A stretch of 64,000 bases of DNA, taken from positions 1,114-65,113 of the IMG/VR virus record IMGVR_UViG_3300044631_000812. One strand, written 5' to 3'. This DNA comes from a virus. Lineage: Duplodnaviria > Caudoviricetes. The first letter of the stretch is position 1, and each line of letters begins with the position of its first letter. Both the position numbers and the translations under genes were made by a program. The notes beneath the pieces are model-generated. The model was given only the letters and a program-made list of their open reading frames with translations. It was not told the origin of the DNA and ran no database searches. Of the stretch, positions 2,857 through 20,010 are shown piece by piece.

Positions 2857-5500
2857 AACTAAGCAGGCATTCAGCTACACAGGTAGCTCAACATACACAA
2901 TTGACAATGTGGTATTAAGTAGCAGCGCTATCGCTCTATTTGATACGTCCACAGGTGTCGGTGGCGTTGACTATATTCCATACGATGGGGCTACCGTCAC
3001 TGTGGTCGCTGGTGATGTTTTATCTGACTACCGACAGCTCGCACCAACTTTAAATAATAAGCTCTATTATTTGGTTTCAGACACTGCATACACAGCAGCT
3101 GACAAGACAACCATACTTAGCATAGCAACTGAAATACCGGTCATTTATTCGGCAGGAGTATTTACCGGCACATTTGTTTTCTTAAATCCAAATAACTATG
3201 AGTATGTATACTTGTTATGGGATTATGAGGATAAAATGGATACCGTTGCGTCATATAAAGGCGTAACCGATAGCCGAGCAATCGATATGCTTTTCGGGCC
3301 TAACATCGGGCGAGCTGGTATTAGTTTTAATACCGTTGACCCAGACCAACCAACAAGATATCAGATTGAATGGAACGGTGAGATTGTTGCGGATACTAAA
3401 TATGTCGGTTTAAATTCATCCGCAAACTACATAAAATTAGAAGCTGCAGGTATTCCCGCAGAAGATATTGGTCTTGTGGCTCCATACGATGGTCTTGTTA
3501 ATAATGGCACTGGCATTATTGAATTTTACAAAAATCTACCTGAAGGTGAAGCAAGTTTAATTGTATCTTCAGCAACTGCTAGTTCTACATGGATAGTAAA
3601 CAAGATTAATCCATATTTAACTCAGTTTTATATTGACCAAGATCCTGGAACAACTGCAAATGTATGCGCACAGTGTCCTGATGTCGCTATTTACCATAAT
3701 GGCATTGACGCTCTTCCAAACGTTGGAGATCAGTTGTTTACAACAAGCACAGGATCAGCAGTTTACGTTGGTGATGATTTTTTACATCTTATTGATACAA
3801 GATCATGCACTACTCCTCCAATATCAAACTTAAGTTATATTGAGATAAGCTCTACAGGTGAGGTTTTATCAAAACAAAGCTGTACATGTTCAGAGTTTGC
3901 GGTTCCATTTATTATTGCGGATCCAATTACAGCTAATACTAATACCTCAGAGAGTGTAACGATAGAGGTTATTAATAATCCTACTTCTTGGGTAGTTAGC
4001 TCAAGCACGTTACCCGATCAGGCAACTTTCTCAAATGGGACTATATATTTTGAAAATTGCCCTGCTGGTGTTTATTCAATAGAATTATCAGCATTAAATT
4101 GCGTAGGAAGAAGCTCATTAGTTACTATATCTGTAACAGTGTCAGACCTTGGCAACATGAAGCCTTTCTTAATTGACGTTGAGCAGTTTAAAGAATCTGG
4201 TAGAGATGCATGTCTAGTAATACCTACATTTACCTTAATGTACTTTGAGGGTGATGGTTACATACCAAACCTAATCGATACTGTATTCTACGACTCAGAA
4301 GGCTTACGTCCATTTATGGGAGGTAAGAAATGGTACTATATAAATGACTCAAACTACAGCATTCAGATTGATCAAGAAGGAACCATTATTGGAAAAAGTG
4401 TGTGTGTTGGAGCCACTACAACGACTACAACGACAAGCACAACAACACTACCTTCAGGCACCTATTTTAATGCAACATCATGCGTTGATAACACATTAAG
4501 TGTTGTACTAAGAAATTCATTAGGAACATCAATTGCAACAAATTTAGTTGTTAAAACAACAGACGGTAACTGTTGGAGAGTAACCGGATCAAGAACCGCA
4601 GCAACGCCATATTATAATGTTGTTACACCGATAGTTACATACGCTGACTGCACTGCATGTACTGGGACTACCACAACTACAACTACTAGCACAACCACAA
4701 CGTCAACGCCCGTCACTGGTTTTGACTTTGATGTTACGCCATTCAACACAGACCTATTGGCATGCACGTCCACACCGTCATATGTAACATACTATCACAC
4801 AGGCACATTAGCAGTAAACAGTTTTGTTTACACCAACTCAGGCGCCACAACACTATTTAATGGGGGGTTCTTGTGGTATTTAGTTAGAAAGTCAGGTGTG
4901 ACATATGCTTGCCTAGTCGCTGACACAGGTCAGATTCTAAAGCTATTGGCTTGCTCAGGTGTAACCACTACAACAACCACAACCACATTGCCTTTCTATT
5001 ACTACAATGGAACTAAATGTGTGGGCGGTGCTGCTGTACTAATGAGATACCAAGGCTTTGCTCCTTTAAGTTTGCCTAATTTCATAAAAGACAGTAACGG
5101 CGATTGCATAACAATCACGTCAGTAGCTTCACCTGGAGCGCAAAATGGTGACATATACTACACTTATGGAAGCTGTTCAGAGTGCGCTGCAACTACAACT
5201 ACTACAACAACTACTACAACTACAACAACGTCAACTACAACAACATCAACTACCACAACGACGATTGCTCCGTTGACGTCAATCACGCTGTCATACTCTT
5301 CTTCACAATCAACAGTTTGTACTGTTCTTGATATTGATAATTATTATGTAAATGGTGCAATTGGTGTCCCTGGAAATAATATCTTTACAAACCTTTTAGG
5401 CACTATTTCAGCGCCTGCTGGTTGGTACTTGAATTTAATTATTAATGTCGCGTATGAATGGGACGGATCAGACTGGACCGGAGCGACTAACGTTTGTTAA
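2849..5500 (+). CDS. Putative virion protein with Ig-like domain, Cys-rich modules and four poly-Thr (mucin-like) tracts
   Basis: 883-aa ORF overlapping both neighbours; Thr/Ser tracts near 4415, 4667, 4964 and 5192; CxxC pairs; He_PIG-like segment NNPTSW...LP...GVYSIELSALN. Confidence 0.75.
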   Translation: MGKTKQAFSYTGSSTYTIDNVVLSSSAIALFDTSTGVGGVDYIPYDGATVTVVAGDVLSDYRQLAPTLNNKLYYLVSDTAYTAADKTTILSIATEIPVIYSAGVFTGTFVFLNPNNYEYVYLLWDYEDKMDTVASYKGVTDSRAIDMLFGPNIGRAGISFNTVDPDQPTRYQIEWNGEIVADTKYVGLNSSANYIKLEAAGIPAEDIGLVAPYDGLVNNGTGIIEFYKNLPEGEASLIVSSATASSTWIVNKINPYLTQFYIDQDPGTTANVCAQCPDVAIYHNGIDALPNVGDQLFTTSTGSAVYVGDDFLHLIDTRSCTTPPISNLSYIEISSTGEVLSKQSCTCSEFAVPFIIADPITANTNTSESVTIEVINNPTSWVVSSSTLPDQATFSNGTIYFENCPAGVYSIELSALNCVGRSSLVTISVTVSDLGNMKPFLIDVEQFKESGRDACLVIPTFTLMYFEGDGYIPNLIDTVFYDSEGLRPFMGGKKWYYINDSNYSIQIDQEGTIIGKSVCVGATTTTTTTSTTTLPSGTYFNATSCVDNTLSVVLRNSLGTSIATNLVVKTTDGNCWRVTGSRTAATPYYNVVTPIVTYADCTACTGTTTTTTTSTTTTSTPVTGFDFDVTPFNTDLLACTSTPSYVTYYHTGTLAVNSFVYTNSGATTLFNGGFLWYLVRKSGVTYACLVADTGQILKLLACSGVTTTTTTTTLPFYYYNGTKCVGGAAVLMRYQGFAPLSLPNFIKDSNGDCITITSVASPGAQNGDIYYTYGSCSECAATTTTTTTTTTTTTSTTTTSTTTTTIAPLTSITLSYSSSQSTVCTVLDIDNYYVNGAIGVPGNNIFTNLLGTISAPAGWYLNLIINVAYEWDGSDWTGATNVC

Positions 5501-9792: not shown

Positions 9793-12700
9793 ATGCCAAA
9801 CGATAATCTTAAGAAGTACTATTCCTATTTAAAGTCAAACGGCGCTGATGTAGCTCCCACATATGATTCATTTGTATCTACATTAAATAATGAAGAAAAT
9901 GCTAAGAAATACTACTCTTATTTACAGAGTAATGGATTCGACACGCCACCTTCATACGACCAATTTGCCAACACTTTGGGTATAAAAAAAAAAGATCCTA
10001 CGGCATCTGGATCAGGAACGTCTTCATCGGGAAGATCATCCAACACAACAACAAAGCCTACGGCATCTTCATATTCAAAAGGTGAAATCTTTACTGGTTA
10101 TCCAGGTAAGGAAGAGAAGCCATATCAATTTAAGGATGGTAAGTGGTATGAGGAGGCTCCTGTAAAAGTATATGGTCAGGAGGCTAAGTATGTGCAGATT
10201 CAAGATCCAAATAGAATTGGTAATCTCAATAAGCAGTTTAAAAAGGACGCATCTTTATCCCAACAAGAGGAGGTTTTTAATAACTACGATGACGAAAAAT
10301 CTGACAACCAATACCGTATAAAAGACGGACAATGGCAGCGAATGACTCCTGGCAGTAAGTGGCATACCATTCAGAATGAGGGATCAATCAATGCGTTAAA
10401 TAATCGATACGGCAAAAGCGTAAGCACTAGAGTTTCAACCACAACTACAGTAAAGCCTGTAAAGTTTGATGACATTAACTCAGACTTTATGGCAAAAACA
10501 GAAGAGGATGCTATAAAAAAACTAACTGAAAAATATGGCAAGCTTGGCTTTGAGTTCTCTGAAGAGGGTTTATTTTTAAAGGATCAAATTAGAGTAAAAA
10601 CTAAAGATGGTAGTAAGGATCAGGTATTTGAGTTTGACGAAAAAAATCCTGAGCAAGCACGTGAATTACGTGCATTCTTAGAAGCAAATGCCTCTAAGCC
10701 GTATAGTGAAAGTTTTGATAAGGCGTTATCTGCTCTTAATAAAGGAGATGTAAGGCCAAGTTATCAGATTGGTGGTAGTACACTTGCTTTTGGAACTGAT
10801 CAAGATGGATTAGAAAAAGAGTCTGCTGCTATTAGAGGAAAGAACTTGCTATCAAGCGATTTTCAGTCACAGTTTAAAAAGCTACCATTTGATGAACAAA
10901 AAGAACTTATTCAAAAGCAAATTGCTAGTGGATCTCTTCCTTCAAGTGATGTTCAATCTTTTTACAAAAGTGAAGCATATAAAGACTATAAGAAAAAGAA
11001 AATAGCTGGAGATCAACAAGTTAAAGCAAAGCAAGACCAAATATTTGATGACTATCAGTACGCCTTAGCTACTAAAGATCCGGCCAAAATAAAGGAAGCG
11101 AAGGCTAAAATTAATGCATACTATACCGATGATATTATACAGGATAATGTTAAGACGTATAACATGAAGCTTAATGATCTTGAACAGTCACAAAAAAAGA
11201 TACTACAAGATAGGAAAGTATACGATGATGAGGTAAATAGATTTAATGAGCTAGCCCAAAGCGGCAATATGACTCAAGAACAATATGATGCTCAAAAAAA
11301 AATACTAGATAGTCAAGCTGAATCATTAGAAACAAGAGCTCAGAACTTTGTGATGCAAAGAAAAGAAATTCAAGCATCACAAAATAAGCTAAACTTGGTG
11401 GCTGGTAAGTACGTAGCTGCTAAAGAAAAGGAAGGTAACTTTGGTGGATTTGTAGTTAACAAGGTATTGAGTGGTATATCAATGACATTCGCTGAACCAT
11501 TCGCTGGATTAGAGGCTACTCAAAATAGATATGATTACTTATCTCCAGAAGAAAAAGCTTACTACAAGTCAATTAAATATAACGGAAAGAATCTTACTAA
11601 AGATCAGATTGAAAATCTACTTGACAATCAGGCTGTATTAAAGGCAAAGAACCAAGCGAAAGAAAATATTATTGATGTACTTGGATCTGAAGGTACCACT
11701 CTTGAGTACATGAAGTCTGGAGATAGAGGGTTTATTACACAAGCAATAGGCGGTGTTCTTGAATCTCTTCCTGCAATGGCAACTGGTGTAGCTGGAAAAG
11801 CAGCTGGTTTTGTAGGTCTTGCGGCACAAGCTTATAGTGGGATTGAAGAGGAGATGCTTAGCGACCCTGACTTCCAGTACACTTCTGCAGGTGATCGTGC
11901 TATTATTGCGATACCATATGCAGCAGGAATGGGCGTACTTGAGAGTGTAGGTTTACAAAACTTAGTTAAGGGAGACTCATTCTTAGGTAAAGTTATGATG
12001 GATGTTGCTCTTAAGTCAGCTAAGAAATTAGGAGCTAATGCAACTAAAGAAGCACTTGAAAGAGTTGCAGCCAAAGAGGTTGAAAGTCTTTTAGCTAAGG
12101 GGTTAATTCGTGTAACACAGGCAGGCGTTGCTGAATTTGAAACCGGATTTACGCAAGCATTGGTATTAGACCAAGGATTAAAAAATGTTTACAACTACAT
12201 TCAACAAAGCGGCCTAACTGAAGAGCAAAAGAAAAATCTAACTCAAGGTGAGTACTTTGATACAGCCGATGGGTTTAAAGAATTAGCATCCCAAACATTT
12301 GAGGATGGTGTTGCTGAAATGATTGGCGGTGTTGTTATGGGATCTGTAGGAACTCTATTTCAAGCTGTAACAAAGGGTAATATTTCTTTGTACAATGATG
12401 ATGACGTTAAGTTCTTAAAAGATGTTGTCGCAGATAGCAACTTTAAGAAACTATACGTAGCATCTATGAAGACGCAGATGCTAGATGGCAAAATCACTAA
12501 GTCAAAAGCGCAGCAGAACTTAGACAACTTAAATGAGATTGAGGCTGCATTTGATATGATGCCAGATGGTTTGTCTACAGCAGATATGAACAGATCGCTT
12601 TCTTTGATTACAGAGAGAGCTCAACTAACAAAAGAAAAAGCAGGGAAAGACCCTAACCTTGTTGCACCATTAGAGGCGCGCATCAAGGCCATAAATGAAG

Positions 12701-15700
12701 AACTAACACAAATTGGAGAAAATGCCGTTCAAAAGCAAACAACAGGTGAAGTATCTGTACAGCCAGGAACCAAAGGTGGCAGAGAAGTGGAGGAAAGAAA
12801 ACCCGAAACAGGACTTAAAGAAACTACCCAAAAAGGTAAAGAAGAAGTAGATCAGTACATTGCTGATATGGGTGCTGAAGCCCGTATTGGAAATACCATC
12901 AATCCGGTTATGGAAAAGATGGCTAATACTGAGTACATCAACGACAATGATATTGATAACGCCATTGAGGCAATTTTTAATGAAGTCGAGAGTTTAGATA
13001 AGTCAGACTACAGTGCAGAGACAAAAGCTGCATTGTCTGAGAAGCTACTAAACATCGCTGAAAAATTAGATAACTATGAATTTAGAACAAAGACTGAAAC
13101 TGTCGCAACTACCAAAGCAGGCGCAGCTACAACTACTAGAAGAACTTCTGAAGCGGTCCAAAAAATCAGAGCCGAAAAATACTTCGATGGAGTCCAAGCC
13201 ACAGTCAATGGACAAGAAGTAACTCTTAAGGATAATAAAGGACGAGTAGAGGCTCAGATGCCAAACGGTGAGGTGGTTGTGTTAGACACACCTACCATGG
13301 AGATTGCCGAGGATGGATTTGAGTTTGATGACAATGGCGCACTTCAGGCTGTCACAGTAACCGATAGACTTGGCAATACAGCTAAACTTACTGGTGATCA
13401 GGCACTTGACTTTGCTATCCGTGATCGTGAGAACAAGCTTGGTGTTGTTGAGCAGGCTGAGTTTGATACTGTATACCAAGAGGTAGAGAAGAAGTATATC
13501 AAGGAGACGCCGGCACCTCAAGTAGCAGCTAAAAAACAAGCCGCTGTTGAAGAACAGCAGCCTGTAGTTGAAGAAGAAGGCCAACCAATTGCAGAACCTA
13601 ACGAATCCAATCGCTTTACCGAGCGAAATGCCAAGGTTATGGCCGTCAAGTTTCCTAGTAAAAAAGGAATTGTAAGGGCAGCTCTGAACATAATCAAAGC
13701 CTTGCCTGGTGTAAAAATTTACTTGCATGAGGACTCTAATCAGTATGCTCAAGAAGTGAGTGCTAGAGTTAAAGAATCAATAAAAATAAAAAAAGATCTT
13801 GATGAAGCAGGTTCTTACATTGATGGTGAGATCCATATTGACATGTCAAAGGCTGATTTAGTTACGTTACTACATGAGGCATTCCATCATGCATTTTTGA
13901 CACTTGGTGTTAAGAACGGAATGTTTATTGATCTAGCAAAAGGTCTTCGTTCATTAATAAAAAATAAAGAAGCACTTGACTATTTAGATGAATTTATTGC
14001 AAGCTACTCAGAAGAGACAGCAGAATTACAAGCAGAAGAATTTGCTGTAGAGTTAGGAGCTATACTTGCTAACAATCGAGAAGAGCTTACAACTACAAAG
14101 CTTACTCAGTTCAAGGCATTGATCAACCGAATAGCAAAGAAAATTGGCCTAGGAATGGTATTTTCTTCAGCAGCAAATAGCAAAGAAGCGGCTGACTTTA
14201 TTAATGCTATTACTCGTGGATTAACTACTGGTGATATCGTTGAAGGTAAATTCAAGCCAACTAAGACAGGAAAAGCTAAAAGGCAAGCAGTAACTATTAT
14301 GGAGGGAAGGGAATCCATGAAGAAGTTTGGATTAACTCCTGGTAAAAATGTTACAAGAAAAATTGGAGAAGCTCTTGAGGCTAGACAAAGAGCAAAATAT
14401 GGAACAATAGCTCAAAAAGATAATTCTCCTGAAGCTAGAAAAAAAATATCAAACTGGATGGTTGATGAAGTTAAATACTTTGTTCAATTAATGGGTGATA
14501 AAAGCGGCAAAGGATGGTATGGTGAGCTATATCAGAATTCATTAGATGCTATGGCTAAGGTTTTCCCTGAAATGAAAACTGATCAGAATGCTAGAGATTT
14601 ATTTACAATGCTTGTAGCAATCACATCTGATGGCCAGAAAGTTATGAGTAATTTTAGATTAGCTGCTGCTGCCTACGACTATTATAAGAAAAACGGCGTA
14701 ATGCCGAATACTTTACCTGGGCAACGTGTTGCTTCTTTTGAGGCAAATCTCAAACGAATAAACGAATTACTTGTTGAATATAACGGAGATATAGCAACTA
14801 TCAAAGAAAAATTGATGGAAGTTAAATCTATTCAAGAAATTAATCAAGAAAGAAAAAAAGAAGGATTAGAACCTCTTTCTACTAATTGGCCTGTTAGCTT
14901 TAAGGCTCCATTTGCAGCATCTGTATTTGGTCCAAAATTAGGAATGTTTTATTCCAATCTATCAGGTAATGAATCGTATCCAACACTTGATAGATGGTGG
15001 TCTAGAACTTTTAATAGATATAGAGGCACATTAATTCCTGGATTAAAGTCAGGATTTAGTGCAAAAGGAGAGGCTATTGGACTTGATAGATTTAAACAAC
15101 TGCTTGGAAATCCGGGGATGAGCAATGAAGAAGCTCTTTTAGCAGCAAAATCTTATAGGGACTCTTATGCTGCTAAGGGATATAAATCAGGAACTGATGT
15201 TGAAAAAGCGGCTAACACTATATATAAGACAGCATTTGAGAACTTAAATGATGCCCCATTTACTAAAAATGATCGTCAATTTATGTATGATACAATATCT
15301 GATGCTGTAAATAAATTAAACAAGCAGGGATATGACTTAAGTATTGCTGACGTTCAGGCTATACTTTGGTATTTTGAAAAGAATCTCTACAAAACGTTAG
15401 GTGTTCAAGCAAAAATAGAAGGTATAAGTTATGAAGATGCAGCTAATTACACATACGATAAATGGAAAGAATCTGGAAACAAGTTTGACTATAAGATTAA
15501 CGAATCAGAGGAAGGTCAAGCTGTAGAAGATGCTGATGAGGATATACAGGAAGAAATAATTCAGCGAAAAAAACAATTAAAAATAAAAGAAAATAACAAA
15601 AAACTCCCTAACTTAGCGCAAAATGAAAAAGGAAACATACAATCCGAACGAACCGGAGACGGAAGAACAGCACGGCCTGCAATCAGCAAAAATGCGCCTC

Positions 15701-18700
15701 TCGAAGGTGCTCCAACAATCCAAGGGGCAACCGGACCAGACCCAGAACTTGTATCAGTTGCTGAAAAATATGCAGATGAAAACAATATTGATCTCAAAAG
15801 ACAAGGAGAGTACGTCGAATTAGACGAAGAAAGAGCTAAGAGATTAGCCGATGCTTACGAGCAGATGGCTGACGACCCTCAAAATCCAAAAGTCAAAGAT
15901 GCATATGCTGAATTAATAAAACAAACTAAAGCTCAATACCAAGCATTGGTAGATGCGGGCTATAAGTTTTGGTTTGTTGATTTTAATAATCCTGAGAATA
16001 TTGATTACATATCATCTCCGTATAACGCCATGCGTGATTTGCGCCAAAACAAACAGATGGGCGTTTTCCCAACAGAACAAGGTTTTGGCTCAAATGAAAA
16101 TATAGATGTATCTAAAAATCCTTTATTAGAGGACACAGGTATCATGTGGCCATCAGGTGGATTAAATGGAAAAATGAAAATTGTTACAGCAAATGATTTA
16201 TTTAGAGCTGTACATGACGCATTCGGGCATGGTCTTGAGGGGGCTGGATTTAGAGCAAGAGGCGAAGAGAATGCATGGCAAGCTCATTCAAGATTGTACA
16301 CAGGAAGTGCTATAGGTGCTATGACGAGTGAAACAAGAGGTCAAAACTCTTGGGTAAACTACGGACCTAAAGGAGAGCAAAATAGAACTGCGAGTGGTGA
16401 AGATACTATTTTTGCTGATCAAAAAGTAGGTCTTATGCCTAAATGGACATGGACTGAAGGTCGCGCAGGTGATATGGAAGCCCCTAAACGAAAGAAGCAA
16501 TTGAAGCCTAAAATTTTAGGCGTGAAGCCTACAGTGGTGATTGTGAACGATGAGCAGAAGGCCTTGGTTGATCAGATCAAGCTTGAAGTCAGAGCACAAC
16601 GCGAGCAGAAGAAGGCATACAAGCAAGTGCTTGCAGACATCTCAGCTAGAGTCACAGCGCTTAAGAGTAAAGGTAATATATCTGTCAAGCAGTTTGACGC
16701 CATCATGAAGAACTTAAAGCGCTTAAACTTTGATAACGAAACAAAGGTCCAGGCGTTTATTGACTACGTGTCAAGAGCCCTTGCTAATGCAGACTACGTA
16801 GAGAAAGTAGCTAAAGCTCAGTCACTTAATAAAAGAATCAAGGCTAGTCTAAAAGGCACAGCTAATCCATTTGCTGTATTGGCTAAGATGTTCACGACAT
16901 TGGACTCACGATGGGTACAGAACATTGACGACCATATTGCAGTGGCTCAGATGATCTTAGATGGCGTTAAGCCTAGCGCAGCTAGACGTGGTGTCCTTAC
17001 ACTTAAAGAGGAACCAGATCTACAAGTTATTGCTGAATATATTGACGCTGAGCAGACGCTTCAAACGCAGATGTTGCTTGATAGGCTTAAGTTTAGATAT
17101 GAAATGATTACAGGTAATCCATCAGACAAGTTAACAGCTGATGAGATGATTACTCTTCTAGATGCATTAAAGCCAAATGAAGACCAAACTGATAAGATAA
17201 AAGAACAGATAGATCAAAAGTTTGCTGAGTATGCATCTATGTTATCTGAAGAAGATCCACAAGTTATTGTTGATGCTGTAAATGTAGATACAGACATGAT
17301 AAGTTGGAGAGAGTCTGTTAAGATACTAGATGCACTTGACACATACTTTACTAATGGGTCATTAGCTGGTATTGACTCGCTTATGGGTTCATATCAAGGT
17401 ATTGTTAATGTGAAGAGATTTAAGGATAAATCTAATCCAATGACAATAGCTCTTTCTAAAAATTTGGCAAAACTTAAATTTGAAAACTTTACTGGGTTCA
17501 CAAGAATACTAGAAAGAAAATTCAGAAGTCTAGAAAAATCTCTTGCTTATGAAAAAGCGAGTGGAATTAATGATATTGTTACTGGTGTTAATAGAGCTGA
17601 CTTTGAAGCCGCTAAGAAACAAAAGGAATATATTAAAAAGTTTGAAAAGGTAAAAGATTTCAACTCAAATGAGAATATATATGAGAGAGGTGTAATTGCA
17701 GATCTTATTAGAACAAACGCAGGTATTGATCAGGATGCTGAATTTGATCGATTAGTAAACATATTGATAGACTCTAAAGACATGTTGCTTGCAAGCCAAG
17801 ATCAAACTAAAGTTGAGATGGGTAGGTTGTGTGACAAAGTTTTCAAAAAACTTGGTCTTTATGAGGATGGAATTACAATTGACGACGTACTATCTAAGGC
17901 TACTAAAACAAATGTAGATGCGGTAGAATTTGTTGTAGATATGTTTGCAGATAAGTATGACTTACTTAGCGACACAGCGCTAGGTGTGTATAACGTTATG
18001 CTTGGTCAAGACATAAACTACACACCAAAGATATACATGAATATTAGAAATGAGAAGTCTGTTGACTCTGATCCGTTGTCAGGAAAAGACGCGTTCAGTC
18101 TTGGAGCTTATTCAAACTTGTATGCAGGTTTTAATAAAAATGAGGCAGGAGTTTTAATGCCTATTACAAGACCAAAGGACTTAAAAGATGCTGGAAAATA
18201 TATTGATTTGAACTTTGACAACAATATGTTTAGATCTTATCGCTTGGCATTAACTGATGCATACACTGCAAAATCAATACGTCAGTTAAATTCATTCTTC
18301 AACACAAAAGAAAATGAAGACATATTAGCATCCGAAAAAGACTTTGATGTAATTAAGGCAGCACTAAGTGACTACATTAATACAGCAAAGGGGAAGAACT
18401 TTATTGGTAAGATAACTTCACAAGAGGTAGATAAGTTTATAAACCTAATCAGTACGTTTGGATCTGTAAGAGCGCTCGTTGGTGTTGGACAGGCATTTAG
18501 CCAGTTTGCTTCTGGTATGTCAAACACAATAATTAATGCAGGTGAGCATATTAGACCATCCGACTTTACAAAAAAGGCATTTGATTTCATGAACAGATCA
18601 GGACAGCCTATTGCAAACGTAGGTGAGAATGACATTCTAATATCACTAGCCAACTTTGATAAGTCTATTGAGAGAGCGACTGTTGGTAAAAATATGGCAG

Positions 18701-20010
18701 AAATAGGACTTGATAAGTTTGCCAAGTTTAACTCAAAGGCATTCCAAATATTTGTATCAAACCCAGATGCTGCCGCTAGACGATTAGCTTGGATGGCATA
18801 CTACAGAAAATATGTAATTAAAAACAAACTTGGTCCTATAGACTTTAATGCAGAGCCAAATGCTGAAGCTGCTGCTTATGCTCAAGGGATGGTAGATAGG
18901 TCAATGGATGCTACTGATGCTAGAATTCGTGGTGACATATATAGAACTCAAAACGTATGGGCAAAAGCTGTTAGAAGTATGTTGTTCCCATTCTCTTCAT
19001 TTGGTATGAACCAAAAGACTAGAATGTGGGGAGACCTTACTAAGTTGGTTACATTCAATGCTGACTTTGATACAGCTAGATCATTGGCGTCAATTGGAGC
19101 TGAAATGTTCATATACAACTTGATTAGATACCAAATGGCGCGTCTAATATTGTATGCAGCAATGAATATGCTTGGATATGACGATGAGGAGCAAGATGAG
19201 CTAATTAAAGAGCTCAAGAAAAATATGATGTCATCATCATGGAGTAAGGCTGTTGTCGACACATTCTCTCCACTAGCTCTATTTGATAATTGGACTCTTG
19301 AATTAGCAAACTGGTTAATGGCTGAAACAGGCGTTGGTGAGCCTAATCAAAAAGAAGTTGATGAATTTATTAAAGAGGAGAACGACATTAGAAAAATTAA
19401 AAGACTAGACCCTCTAACAAAAGAACAGGAAAAGCGTAAAAGAGATGAATTCATGACTGAGAATTCAATGCAGTTCTACATATCCGACGAAGCTAATTGG
19501 GGTGTACTCGGAATACAATTTGAAAAAGGAGCGGAGTCATATGAAATATACAAGGCATTAACAACCGGTAAGTATACAGATGAGTATGGTCGAGATGTTT
19601 ACTTTGATAGCGAAGCTCGTGAAAAGTTAAAGTGGGTAGCTTTATTAAAGACTGGTGGACAAATAGTACCTTTAAGAGAAATCGATCAGGTAGCTAATAA
19701 GTCACTCAAGTTCCTTAAAAAAGGTAACACAATGTCTGAGAAAAAGTACGACATGATAACCGAGATAAAAAGAAAATTTGGGAAAGTAGATCCGGTGCTA
19801 GAGAAACTAGCTGAGAAAAAGAATAAGATTACCACCATTGAAAATGAAATCGCTTGGATAAATAAACATGGTGGTTTAAAAGGACCTAAAGAAAAGATGG
19901 AGTACGCAAAACTACTAGATTTAATCTCAACACCATCGAAAGATATGTTAGAGAAAATTCAAAGAGGTGGTACTGCTCAGGAAATATTTGATCAAGAGTT
20001 AAAGAAGTAA
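9793..20010 (+). CDS. Giant (3405 aa) polyvalent-type ejected virion protein with zincin HExxH and other enzyme-like domains
   Basis: Single long ORF; LLHEAFHH..AEEFA near 13870; GWY/AITS/GPKLG/TLDRW/VQAILW domain about 14480-15420; NDLFRAVHDAFGH..GEENAW..ETRGQNSW domain about 15800-16450; N-terminal duplicated KKYYSYL.SNG repeat. Confidence 0.75.
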   Translation: MPNDNLKKYYSYLKSNGADVAPTYDSFVSTLNNEENAKKYYSYLQSNGFDTPPSYDQFANTLGIKKKDPTASGSGTSSSGRSSNTTTKPTASSYSKGEIFTGYPGKEEKPYQFKDGKWYEEAPVKVYGQEAKYVQIQDPNRIGNLNKQFKKDASLSQQEEVFNNYDDEKSDNQYRIKDGQWQRMTPGSKWHTIQNEGSINALNNRYGKSVSTRVSTTTTVKPVKFDDINSDFMAKTEEDAIKKLTEKYGKLGFEFSEEGLFLKDQIRVKTKDGSKDQVFEFDEKNPEQARELRAFLEANASKPYSESFDKALSALNKGDVRPSYQIGGSTLAFGTDQDGLEKESAAIRGKNLLSSDFQSQFKKLPFDEQKELIQKQIASGSLPSSDVQSFYKSEAYKDYKKKKIAGDQQVKAKQDQIFDDYQYALATKDPAKIKEAKAKINAYYTDDIIQDNVKTYNMKLNDLEQSQKKILQDRKVYDDEVNRFNELAQSGNMTQEQYDAQKKILDSQAESLETRAQNFVMQRKEIQASQNKLNLVAGKYVAAKEKEGNFGGFVVNKVLSGISMTFAEPFAGLEATQNRYDYLSPEEKAYYKSIKYNGKNLTKDQIENLLDNQAVLKAKNQAKENIIDVLGSEGTTLEYMKSGDRGFITQAIGGVLESLPAMATGVAGKAAGFVGLAAQAYSGIEEEMLSDPDFQYTSAGDRAIIAIPYAAGMGVLESVGLQNLVKGDSFLGKVMMDVALKSAKKLGANATKEALERVAAKEVESLLAKGLIRVTQAGVAEFETGFTQALVLDQGLKNVYNYIQQSGLTEEQKKNLTQGEYFDTADGFKELASQTFEDGVAEMIGGVVMGSVGTLFQAVTKGNISLYNDDDVKFLKDVVADSNFKKLYVASMKTQMLDGKITKSKAQQNLDNLNEIEAAFDMMPDGLSTADMNRSLSLITERAQLTKEKAGKDPNLVAPLEARIKAINEELTQIGENAVQKQTTGEVSVQPGTKGGREVEERKPETGLKETTQKGKEEVDQYIADMGAEARIGNTINPVMEKMANTEYINDNDIDNAIEAIFNEVESLDKSDYSAETKAALSEKLLNIAEKLDNYEFRTKTETVATTKAGAATTTRRTSEAVQKIRAEKYFDGVQATVNGQEVTLKDNKGRVEAQMPNGEVVVLDTPTMEIAEDGFEFDDNGALQAVTVTDRLGNTAKLTGDQALDFAIRDRENKLGVVEQAEFDTVYQEVEKKYIKETPAPQVAAKKQAAVEEQQPVVEEEGQPIAEPNESNRFTERNAKVMAVKFPSKKGIVRAALNIIKALPGVKIYLHEDSNQYAQEVSARVKESIKIKKDLDEAGSYIDGEIHIDMSKADLVTLLHEAFHHAFLTLGVKNGMFIDLAKGLRSLIKNKEALDYLDEFIASYSEETAELQAEEFAVELGAILANNREELTTTKLTQFKALINRIAKKIGLGMVFSSAANSKEAADFINAITRGLTTGDIVEGKFKPTKTGKAKRQAVTIMEGRESMKKFGLTPGKNVTRKIGEALEARQRAKYGTIAQKDNSPEARKKISNWMVDEVKYFVQLMGDKSGKGWYGELYQNSLDAMAKVFPEMKTDQNARDLFTMLVAITSDGQKVMSNFRLAAAAYDYYKKNGVMPNTLPGQRVASFEANLKRINELLVEYNGDIATIKEKLMEVKSIQEINQERKKEGLEPLSTNWPVSFKAPFAASVFGPKLGMFYSNLSGNESYPTLDRWWSRTFNRYRGTLIPGLKSGFSAKGEAIGLDRFKQLLGNPGMSNEEALLAAKSYRDSYAAKGYKSGTDVEKAANTIYKTAFENLNDAPFTKNDRQFMYDTISDAVNKLNKQGYDLSIADVQAILWYFEKNLYKTLGVQAKIEGISYEDAANYTYDKWKESGNKFDYKINESEEGQAVEDADEDIQEEIIQRKKQLKIKENNKKLPNLAQNEKGNIQSERTGDGRTARPAISKNAPLEGAPTIQGATGPDPELVSVAEKYADENNIDLKRQGEYVELDEERAKRLADAYEQMADDPQNPKVKDAYAELIKQTKAQYQALVDAGYKFWFVDFNNPENIDYISSPYNAMRDLRQNKQMGVFPTEQGFGSNENIDVSKNPLLEDTGIMWPSGGLNGKMKIVTANDLFRAVHDAFGHGLEGAGFRARGEENAWQAHSRLYTGSAIGAMTSETRGQNSWVNYGPKGEQNRTASGEDTIFADQKVGLMPKWTWTEGRAGDMEAPKRKKQLKPKILGVKPTVVIVNDEQKALVDQIKLEVRAQREQKKAYKQVLADISARVTALKSKGNISVKQFDAIMKNLKRLNFDNETKVQAFIDYVSRALANADYVEKVAKAQSLNKRIKASLKGTANPFAVLAKMFTTLDSRWVQNIDDHIAVAQMILDGVKPSAARRGVLTLKEEPDLQVIAEYIDAEQTLQTQMLLDRLKFRYEMITGNPSDKLTADEMITLLDALKPNEDQTDKIKEQIDQKFAEYASMLSEEDPQVIVDAVNVDTDMISWRESVKILDALDTYFTNGSLAGIDSLMGSYQGIVNVKRFKDKSNPMTIALSKNLAKLKFENFTGFTRILERKFRSLEKSLAYEKASGINDIVTGVNRADFEAAKKQKEYIKKFEKVKDFNSNENIYERGVIADLIRTNAGIDQDAEFDRLVNILIDSKDMLLASQDQTKVEMGRLCDKVFKKLGLYEDGITIDDVLSKATKTNVDAVEFVVDMFADKYDLLSDTALGVYNVMLGQDINYTPKIYMNIRNEKSVDSDPLSGKDAFSLGAYSNLYAGFNKNEAGVLMPITRPKDLKDAGKYIDLNFDNNMFRSYRLALTDAYTAKSIRQLNSFFNTKENEDILASEKDFDVIKAALSDYINTAKGKNFIGKITSQEVDKFINLISTFGSVRALVGVGQAFSQFASGMSNTIINAGEHIRPSDFTKKAFDFMNRSGQPIANVGENDILISLANFDKSIERATVGKNMAEIGLDKFAKFNSKAFQIFVSNPDAAARRLAWMAYYRKYVIKNKLGPIDFNAEPNAEAAAYAQGMVDRSMDATDARIRGDIYRTQNVWAKAVRSMLFPFSSFGMNQKTRMWGDLTKLVTFNADFDTARSLASIGAEMFIYNLIRYQMARLILYAAMNMLGYDDEEQDELIKELKKNMMSSSWSKAVVDTFSPLALFDNWTLELANWLMAETGVGEPNQKEVDEFIKEENDIRKIKRLDPLTKEQEKRKRDEFMTENSMQFYISDEANWGVLGIQFEKGAESYEIYKALTTGKYTDEYGRDVYFDSEAREKLKWVALLKTGGQIVPLREIDQVANKSLKFLKKGNTMSEKKYDMITEIKRKFGKVDPVLEKLAEKKNKITTIENEIAWINKHGGLKGPKEKMEYAKLLDLISTPSKDMLEKIQRGGTAQEIFDQELKK
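12722..12850 (+). CDS. Nested small basic protein in +1 frame (MPFKSKQQVKYLYSQEPKVAEKWRKENPKQDLKKLPKKVKKK)
   Basis: ATG...TAG read directly; resembles a recurrent MPFKS..Q..Y/W small phage protein; the host frame here is a low-complexity linker. Confidence 0.6.
   Translation: MPFKSKQQVKYLYSQEPKVAEKWRKENPKQDLKKLPKKVKKK
13076..13222 (+). CDS. Possible nested small protein in +1 frame (MNLEQRLKLSQLPKQAQLQLLEELLKRSKK...)
   Basis: 48-aa ORF with A-rich upstream context and an amphipathic helix, lying in a Thr/Ala linker of the giant protein. Confidence 0.4.
   Translation: MNLEQRLKLSQLPKQAQLQLLEELLKRSKKSEPKNTSMESKPQSMDKK
15623..15823 (+). CDS. Possible nested small protein in +1 frame with upstream promoter-like TAACTTAG
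   Basis: 66-aa ORF preceded by an A-rich tract and TAACTTAG at 15609-15616. Confidence 0.4.
   Translation: MKKETYNPNEPETEEQHGLQSAKMRLSKVLQQSKGQPDQTQNLYQLLKNMQMKTILISKDKESTSN

Follow-up and report, generated by a model that had tools for sequence, protein, structure and literature searches.

The stretch of DNA analysed here, called the window throughout, comprises 64,000 nucleotides (nt) of a phage of the Caudoviricetes (Duplodnaviria; IMG/VR record IMGVR_UViG_3300044631_000812, positions 1,114 to 65,113). It contains a giant gene of 3405 amino acids (aa), an ATG-initiated open reading frame (ORF) on the plus strand at 9793–20010. Within this gene, in its +1 frame, lies a small ORF at 12722–12850 (plus strand) that begins with ATG, ends with TAG and translates as MPFKSKQQVKYLYSQEPKVAEKWRKENPKQDLKKLPKKVKKK-stop. 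A preliminary description of this DNA had drawn attention to a coherent basic peptide at this place, and its sequence and coordinates agree with ours. Judging from homology and substitution patterns, we consider it probable that 12722–12850 is a functional overlapping gene with its own internal ATG, whose predicted product is a 42-aa protein of what we call the MPFKS family. The features concerned are as follows.

9793–20010, plus strand: host gene, an ORF for a modular giant protein of 3405 aa at the end of the virion structural gene block
12704–12721, plus strand: A-rich stretch, a putative Shine-Dalgarno-independent initiation region, marked by A content across nested loci
12721–12852, plus strand: host-frame linker, about residues 977–1020 of the giant protein, acidic, of low complexity and in the 'passenger' frame
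12722–12850, plus strand: predicted nested MPFKS-family gene, 42 codons and TAG in the +1 frame of the giant gene, from its translation and hidden Markov model (HMM) match

The nested peptide has an isoelectric point (pI) of 10.2, with K and R making up 15 of 42 residues, and the host-frame reading over the nested gene, NAVQKQTTGEVSVQPGTKGGREVEERKPETGLKETTQKGKEEVD, has a pI of 5.4. The length of the nested ORF by itself is not beyond chance, because 7 of the 96 ATG ORFs in the +1 frame of the giant gene reach at least 42 aa (longest 66 aa). No ATG ORF of at least 42 aa exists in the +2 frame (longest 18 aa), and the surplus of long ORFs in +1 over +2 is probably an effect of composition or codon usage. 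For the remaining six long +1 ORFs, a pairwise scan against the related locus L082 flagged no further segment. The phage's complete record of 65,113 bases (CheckV, 100% complete) holds this one copy of the gene, with no second copy elsewhere.

The homology of the nested ORF to stand-alone genes vastly exceeds chance. When an HMM was derived solely from 22 stand-alone copies, all taken from other phage contigs, it matched segment 12707–12847 with E=7.9e-19 (64 bits), and the runner-up among 1690 six-frame segments of the window had E=1.3. The likeness to small stand-alone phage proteins, which the preliminary description had proposed, is thereby borne out, and many stand-alone homologues occur in IMG/VR. 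A word-indexed database search with the peptide returned 30 proteins of 41–58 aa (E from 1.5e-14 to 1.1e-2), every one starting with MPFKS. In the resulting alignment of 31 sequences (A1), residues M1, P2, F3, K4, S5, Q8, A20, L35 and P36 are invariant; the window peptide has all nine and, at 42 aa, lies within the family length of 40–60 aa. A profile search of 1.84 billion representatives gave 3635 clusters at E ≤ 1e-3, including 302 at E ≤ 1e-10. Among the matches listed, the MPFKS module begins at residues 1–3 in 124 of 150 proteins (counted by eye), and at E ≤ 1e-3 there are 195 longer proteins in which it is fused in frame, mostly as an N-terminal module. By these comparisons, the product predicted from the nested ORF belongs to a large family, so far without a name, of small and basic proteins of phages.

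Named families come close to this group without absorbing it. Pfam gave no match to the window peptide at E ≤ 10, and none to nine relatives at E ≤ 1 except a below-threshold, chance-level GldB_lipo match for relative P0021. PHROG 1375, a family of unknown function, was matched by seven of the nine tested relatives at E ≤ 1 (six at E ≤ 0.01 and five at E ≤ 0.001), best by P0017 (E=7.5e-7) and P0021 (E=8.1e-6), and its profile has 70 positions, with the match starting at position 17. The window peptide (P0001) matched it weakly (E=0.056), and two of the nine, the elemo-phage peptide among them, did not match; the weak match of our own peptide speaks against the assignment. On the profile matches of its relatives, the MPFKS family would nevertheless be related to PHROG 1375. 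In the protein Atlas, unnamed clusters of 40–48-aa proteins appeared at a score of 0.95, and the nearest cluster bearing any Pfam family carried DUF3008 on 15% of its members at a score of 0.85, a weak lead. DUF3008 presumably has a similar KSKAQQ...LP pattern. Membership of DUF3008 (PF11450) is not demonstrable, with no model match for the peptide at E ≤ 10 or for the nine relatives at E ≤ 1. Among deposited phages, tblastn with P0017 found nothing and with P0025 found four records, and the K-rich half of the queries was probably masked by the low-complexity filter in those searches.

An AlphaFold2 model computed with A1 predicts helices at residues 6–15 and 17–26 followed by an unstructured K-rich tail (mean predicted local distance difference test score 69.9). 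A two-cysteine variant (K.CY ... W.C..W) is found in the elemo phage locus L001 (3583–3711), in L101/L102 (9099) and in L083–L086 (e.g. L083, 8881). These variants swap one residue in each helix region, and do so in three nested lineages, which looks like co-variation at the protein level; the cysteine pair may be a disulfide or a metal site. The peptide of L083–L086 additionally has an insertion of about eight residues and a longer tail, and reaches 67 aa.

For a sample that did not depend on the peptide, 80 loci were collected through a conserved host domain (giant-protein residues 1934–2246), and all six frames of each were scanned. The nested ORF was found at E ≤ 1e-3 in 21 of these 80 host-domain loci, and the divergent two-cysteine form in four more (L083–L086), making 25 of 80. 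The stand-alone HMM missed the copy in the L083 record (E=0.3), and the cysteine-type HMM detected it at 2.3e-26. The preliminary description had held that a lack of stand-alone homologues, or an ATG and stop not conserved in homologous giant genes, would speak against a hidden gene. Stand-alone copies are present in IMG/VR contigs and in three deposited phage genomes, and all 25 nested copies lie in the +1 frame within the giant ORF, with ATG and an intact open frame, including two from which a Pro codon has been deleted with the frame retained.

Selection on the two frames was compared by the proportions of nonsynonymous (pN) and synonymous (pS) differences in 14 unique canonical nested sequences from the host-domain sample, over 36 gap-free codons; L101/L102 (cysteine type, indel), L104/L105 (Pro codon deleted) and L083–L086 were left out.

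Nested frame: pS 0.708, pN 0.092, pN/pS 0.13
Host frame: pS 0.087, pN 0.237, pN/pS 2.7
Third frame: pS 0.172, pN 0.209, pN/pS 1.2

The frame-specific comparison proposed in the preliminary description thus came out at 0.13 for the nested frame versus 2.7 for the host frame, to be read as a contrast between frames and not as calibrated rates, given that plain pN/pS is biased in overlapping frames; this bias, and the kinship among the sequences, by which counts are not independent events, weigh against the gene reading, which leans on how large the contrast is and which way it points. Mean column entropies at nested codon positions 1, 2 and 3 are 0.34, 0.16 and 0.76; in 29 codons the third position varies more than the second, and in 2 it varies less. 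Variability is lowest at the third positions of host codons, the reverse of normal coding in the host frame. Several loci have an identical peptide across the 36 codons and differing host-frame translations, and the host codon over the nested start is AAT, GAT or TAT (N, D or Y) with the ATG unchanged. Over the first 28 codons, 28 unique copies nested in giant genes have a mean pairwise peptide identity of 71%, compared with 26–32% among 12 loci for the host domain of 330 aa that immediately precedes the nested gene.

A pairwise comparison along the giant gene agrees. In a sliding scan against L082 (130 segments of 40 codons), host-frame pS was 0.07 in the segment with the nested ORF versus a gene median of 0.44, and the +1 frame of that segment had pS 0.48 and pN 0.07; the only other segments of low host-frame pS fall in a near-identical block at 15556–15830, which is uninformative. 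Nested copies in a second class of host genes, at the scaffold position (described below), gave pN/pS of 0.33 for the nested and 1.05 for the host frame, and stand-alone copies, as a positive control, gave 0.31 versus 1.47 in the host-equivalent frame. That frame contains 1–10 stops in 27 of 33 stand-alone copies and none in the nested copies. Since most stand-alone copies have stops there, the open host frame of every nested copy reflects constraint. Both frames are kept open in nested copies; substitutions in the nested frame are distributed as in a coding gene, and the host frame, apart from staying open, is a passenger.

Several observations weigh against a functional gene with a free product. 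The cassette is missing from 55 of the 80 homologous giant genes, even by the cysteine-type HMM, and of five complete relative records, four (L096, L100, L109 and L130) have no copy at E ≤ 0.01, the fifth being that of L083 with its divergent copy. The nested gene is dispensable in this phage group; it is accessory, a presence/absence character at a domain boundary. These absences, by which it is not essential, would also suit a captured fossil, that is, a swallowed small gene that is unexpressed and owes its conservation to constraint on the host protein or to recent ancestry. We regard such a fossil as very unlikely. Nested synonymous sites are near saturation (pS 0.71) at a pN of 0.09, and the flanking host domain has diverged to the 26–32% identity given above; host 'synonymous' sites are the least variable, opposite to what host-protein constraint would leave. 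Moreover, the 25 full-length nested copies are all intact, and the sole decayed copies are two short duplicates of the nested start, at 3187–3219 in L001 (elemo; 10 codons, then a stop) and at about 8206–8244 in L083 (13 codons, then a stop). As these are cut after 10 and 13 codons, an unselected copy evidently closes quickly. They sit about 400–700 nt upstream of the full copy, with the host-frame motif EDA[VI]... repeated alongside, and resemble scars that a duplication or recombination has left at the cassette. It could further be argued that the conserved entity is a nucleotide-level element (an RNA structure, a regulatory or a recombination site) and not a protein, for this stretch is the best conserved DNA in a fast-evolving part of the giant gene. 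However, its variability rises and falls every three bases in step with the nested frame, the same coding pattern appears in stand-alone copies, and the RNA fold of the start region is not unusually stable (z=0.51; of 200 shuffled versions, 136 are at least as stable), so that we hold this explanation to be extremely unlikely.

Programmed ribosomal frameshifting from the giant gene would be another way into the +1 frame: it would yield roughly the first 980 residues of the giant protein with a basic MPFKS tail, and no free 42-aa peptide would be made. A point on this side, and a further one against a free peptide, is P0035, a protein of 1075 aa in which the N-domain of the giant gene is in frame with a C-terminal module and a stop follows right after; in-frame fusion of the module in the 195 longer proteins is compatible with it as well. 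A fusion product is conceivable given P0035. This protein could stem from a genuine indel by which the giant gene is divided at the cassette, or from misassembly. Its relatives were absent from the IMG/VR scan, and of three found in one metagenome scan, the two that cover the region (L166 and L168) have the ordinary nested arrangement. Against frameshifting, the ATG is invariant under host codons for D, N or Y, and a frameshift product needs no start. In most nested loci a stop already closes the +1 frame 1–9 codons before the ATG, leaving almost no space for a shift site; a conserved slippery motif was not noticed, with no formal search made; and 124 of the 150 listed family members carry the module at the N-terminus. 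An ATG that never varies, so little open sequence ahead of it and the N-terminal placement of the module across the family favour independent initiation, and frameshifting is quite unlikely.

Of 358 relatives from an IMG/VR scan with A1, 80 were retained as loci, and an exact MPFKS ORF was placed in 77 of them; L006, L026 and L031 have no exact MPFKS string and are unclassified. Four contexts were found: stand-alone, fused in frame, +1-nested in giant virion genes and +1-nested in genes of about 400 aa. The ORF is nested in open frames of 762 to >3100 aa at 27 of the 77 loci, invariably in the +1 frame of the host, and at 19 loci it is nested, likewise in +1, in ORFs of about 380–430 aa. The containing frame is absent or short at 31, which include one 192-aa in-frame fusion and seven loci that were left outside the classes, with partly overlapping open frames of 105–701 aa (L045, L049, L058, L063, L064, L074 and L076). 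The ~400-aa hosts are flanked by a portal gene (PHROG 6547, after the large terminase, PHROG 6681) and a major-capsid-like gene (PHROG 13704), and are therefore at the scaffold position. They have no PHROG match of their own, and they resemble the giant proteins solely across the overlapped linker.

Stand-alone copies are packed tightly behind the upstream gene, frequently with stop/start overlap. In L065 and L068 the copy lies directly 3′ of the portal gene, and in L068 the scaffold gene comes next. A census of 78 of the 85 ORFs listed around 21 stand-alone loci (L052 and L056, which nearly duplicate L039 and L065, were omitted) found large terminase and portal to be the commonest annotated neighbour families; glycosyltransferases, ribonucleotide reductase, tail sheath and others also occur. 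Three deposited phages have stand-alone copies. Phage 023Pt_psg01 has it as an annotated hypothetical coding sequence (CDS) of 39 aa, Synechococcus phage S-CBS2 has a 36-codon gene in an unannotated gap (L163 3501–3611; GU936714 34225–34335), and phage C75C1 has a 34-codon gene, also in an unannotated gap (L164 3501–3605). The copies of S-CBS2 and C75C1 start right after the stop of the preceding gene.

Nested copies are present in cultured phages as well. One and the same tblastn match to the peptide recurs across 68 deposited records of Flavobacterium phages, and the match falls under a 'structural protein' CDS in all 40 listed of these 68. In the elemo phage record inspected, a CDS of 3668 aa contains a +1 ORF of 42 codons whose first six and last five residues are identical to those of the window peptide, and this nested ORF is unannotated.

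As to the origin of the nesting, the family reaches far beyond the linker motif of the host frame, so that the small gene probably came first, with the acidic linker overprinted on it later. The order of genes is portal–small gene–scaffold at stand-alone loci and portal–gene containing the small gene at nested loci, which suggests, for the scaffold-position class, that the downstream gene was extended upstream over the small gene. Neighbours at stand-alone loci and scaffold-position hosts did not match each other at E ≤ 1e-2. The giant gene may have arisen by fusion across the small gene or by insertion of the cassette, and the data fit either. The proposal in the preliminary description that giant genes grew by reading through neighbouring small genes was not borne out for this giant gene, as no split intermediates were found near the 21 stand-alone loci, none of whose neighbours matches any giant protein at E ≤ 1e-4. 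Its companion proposal, that giant genes carry hidden functional genes in their linkers, is supported for this linker and, being a single case, does not extend to a general rule. In a peptide tree of 45 columns, 42 of 61 inner branches are unresolved, and the tree fits one or several origins of nesting.

One could go further and see the ~130-nt MPFKS cassette as a dual-coding module that moves between phage structural genes, an idea that we find rather doubtful. One of its frames would give the basic protein, and the frame one base behind would give a harmless acidic disordered linker, so that unrelated genes, such as those for giant virion proteins and those at the scaffold position, could receive the cassette or read through it and stay intact. 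If this were true, an accessory gene could hide in giant genes and be expressed late along with them, such cassettes would be among the places where giant modular proteins gain and rearrange parts, and the truncated duplicates would be recombination scars.

The 18 nt upstream of the nested ATG contain 56% A, versus 35% in same-phase windows of the same genes (41 nested loci), and A content there is above the mean of its own gene at all 41 loci. Shine-Dalgarno-like motifs occur in 8 of 39 unique upstream regions of nested copies and in front of 5 of the 43 longer ORFs of the window, which has a GC content of 39.8%. Initiation in Bacteroidota is poor in Shine-Dalgarno motifs and A-rich. The rarity of the motifs and the GC content thus fit a host of the Bacteroidota type, as for the Flavobacterium elemo phages. 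According to our model, the late mRNA of the giant gene would serve for the peptide too, with ribosomes starting independently at the nested ATG behind an A-rich leader of the Bacteroidota type that lacks a Shine-Dalgarno motif, and the peptide would be co-expressed with virion genes.

The protein may act in packaging or in the assembly of heads, for instance as a small internal component that binds DNA, portal or scaffold; we put this forward only as a tentative guess from gene position and fusions. The guess is based on the adjacency to portal, terminase and scaffold genes, on in-frame fusions with Phage_Mu_F, Mu-like_Pro and Rubrerythrin/EncFtn-like domains, and on the site in the virion gene block. 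The guess is weakened by other fusion partners (LigD_N/ligase, RusA, cupin and DUF5661) and by the glycosyltransferases, ribonucleotide reductase and tail sheath among the neighbours, none of which points to heads.

The giant host protein itself had no Pfam match at E ≤ 0.01, and the genes upstream of it match virion structural PHROGs 14478 and 13764. Its counterpart in Flavobacterium elemo phage, annotated 'structural protein (DUF3293)', shares a 225-aa stretch at 31% identity, and domain order varies between homologues. Neither a blastn distant search of 11500–14000 nor tblastn of the 507-aa N-domain found anything among deposited phages. In L106 the homologous N-domain stops at this very point, and the linker behind it is another one that has no nested ORF, which fits the earlier view of the host frame as a linker at a domain boundary. 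The domain used for sampling (15592–16530) is 60–93% identical across the 80 host-domain loci, and the rest of the giant protein about 26–30%. Nearby, 15556–15830 (giant residues about 1920–2010) is nearly identical in DNA to L082 (pS about 0), a sign of either a recent recombination or very strong constraint. The sole match near that domain is PHROG 3170, of unknown function, at residues 2133–2192. An HExxH-like motif, HEAFHH, lies at about 13950–14000 (giant residues about 1390–1400), with HEIFH as its counterpart in the elemo giant protein; the region has no Pfam match and may be a zincin-type peptidase domain.

If the reading as an overlapping gene is right, this locus would offer nature's own clear case of dual coding in a large double-stranded DNA phage, with the roles reversed: the small frame is constrained and probably the older, and the frame of the big gene is the passenger. 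It also exposes an annotation gap, in that two of the three deposited phages with stand-alone copies leave the gene unannotated despite the 3635 clusters of the family. Gene callers and scans of the ratio of nonsynonymous to synonymous substitution rates will misread the 'linkers' of giant phage genes, and caution is needed there. The questions opened are Shine-Dalgarno-independent initiation inside a long ORF, the acquisition of linkers by giant virion proteins and the role of the small protein in heads or packaging; with cultured elemo phages and a Flavobacterium host, a directly testable system exists.

To our knowledge, no nested gene in the linkers of giant polyvalent virion proteins has been known. 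Searches of the literature on overlapping genes, small proteins and elemo phages turned up no such nested gene, a result that does not cover the supplements of small-protein catalogues, which could hold the family. In the part of PMC12919940 where it occurs, the string 'MPFKS' is an unrelated C-terminal one.

Among known systems, the nearest are the spanin genes Rz and Rz1 of phage lambda and its relatives, in which Rz1 is embedded in the +1 frame of Rz; the two are functional partners, and the embedding is peculiar to this pair. As in Rz/Rz1, a small phage gene lies wholly within a larger one, in the +1 frame of the same strand, with both frames open. Unlike Rz1, the MPFKS gene belongs to an independent and far more widespread family that also occurs stand-alone and fused, is found in at least two unrelated hosts, and overlaps a host frame that is merely a linker. 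Giant 'polyvalent' multi-domain virion proteins of phages were reportedly described by Iyer and colleagues in 2017, and our host gene resembles them in its size (>3000 aa), its modularity and the shuffling of domain order among relatives. Overprinting in small viruses (phiX174 B in A and E in D) likewise involves two frames under unequal constraint; PMC8227390 and PMC3494269 are reviews on such genes. In contrast to classic overprinting, where a new gene arises de novo inside an old one, the wide spread of the family suggests that the nested MPFKS gene is old and the host linker new, and unlike small overprinting viruses, this is a 65-kb double-stranded DNA phage without obvious size pressure. 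Thus, the kind of nesting is known from Rz/Rz1, and what is new is that a widespread, probably older family with free-living members is nested in at least two unrelated hosts, with the host frame as passenger.

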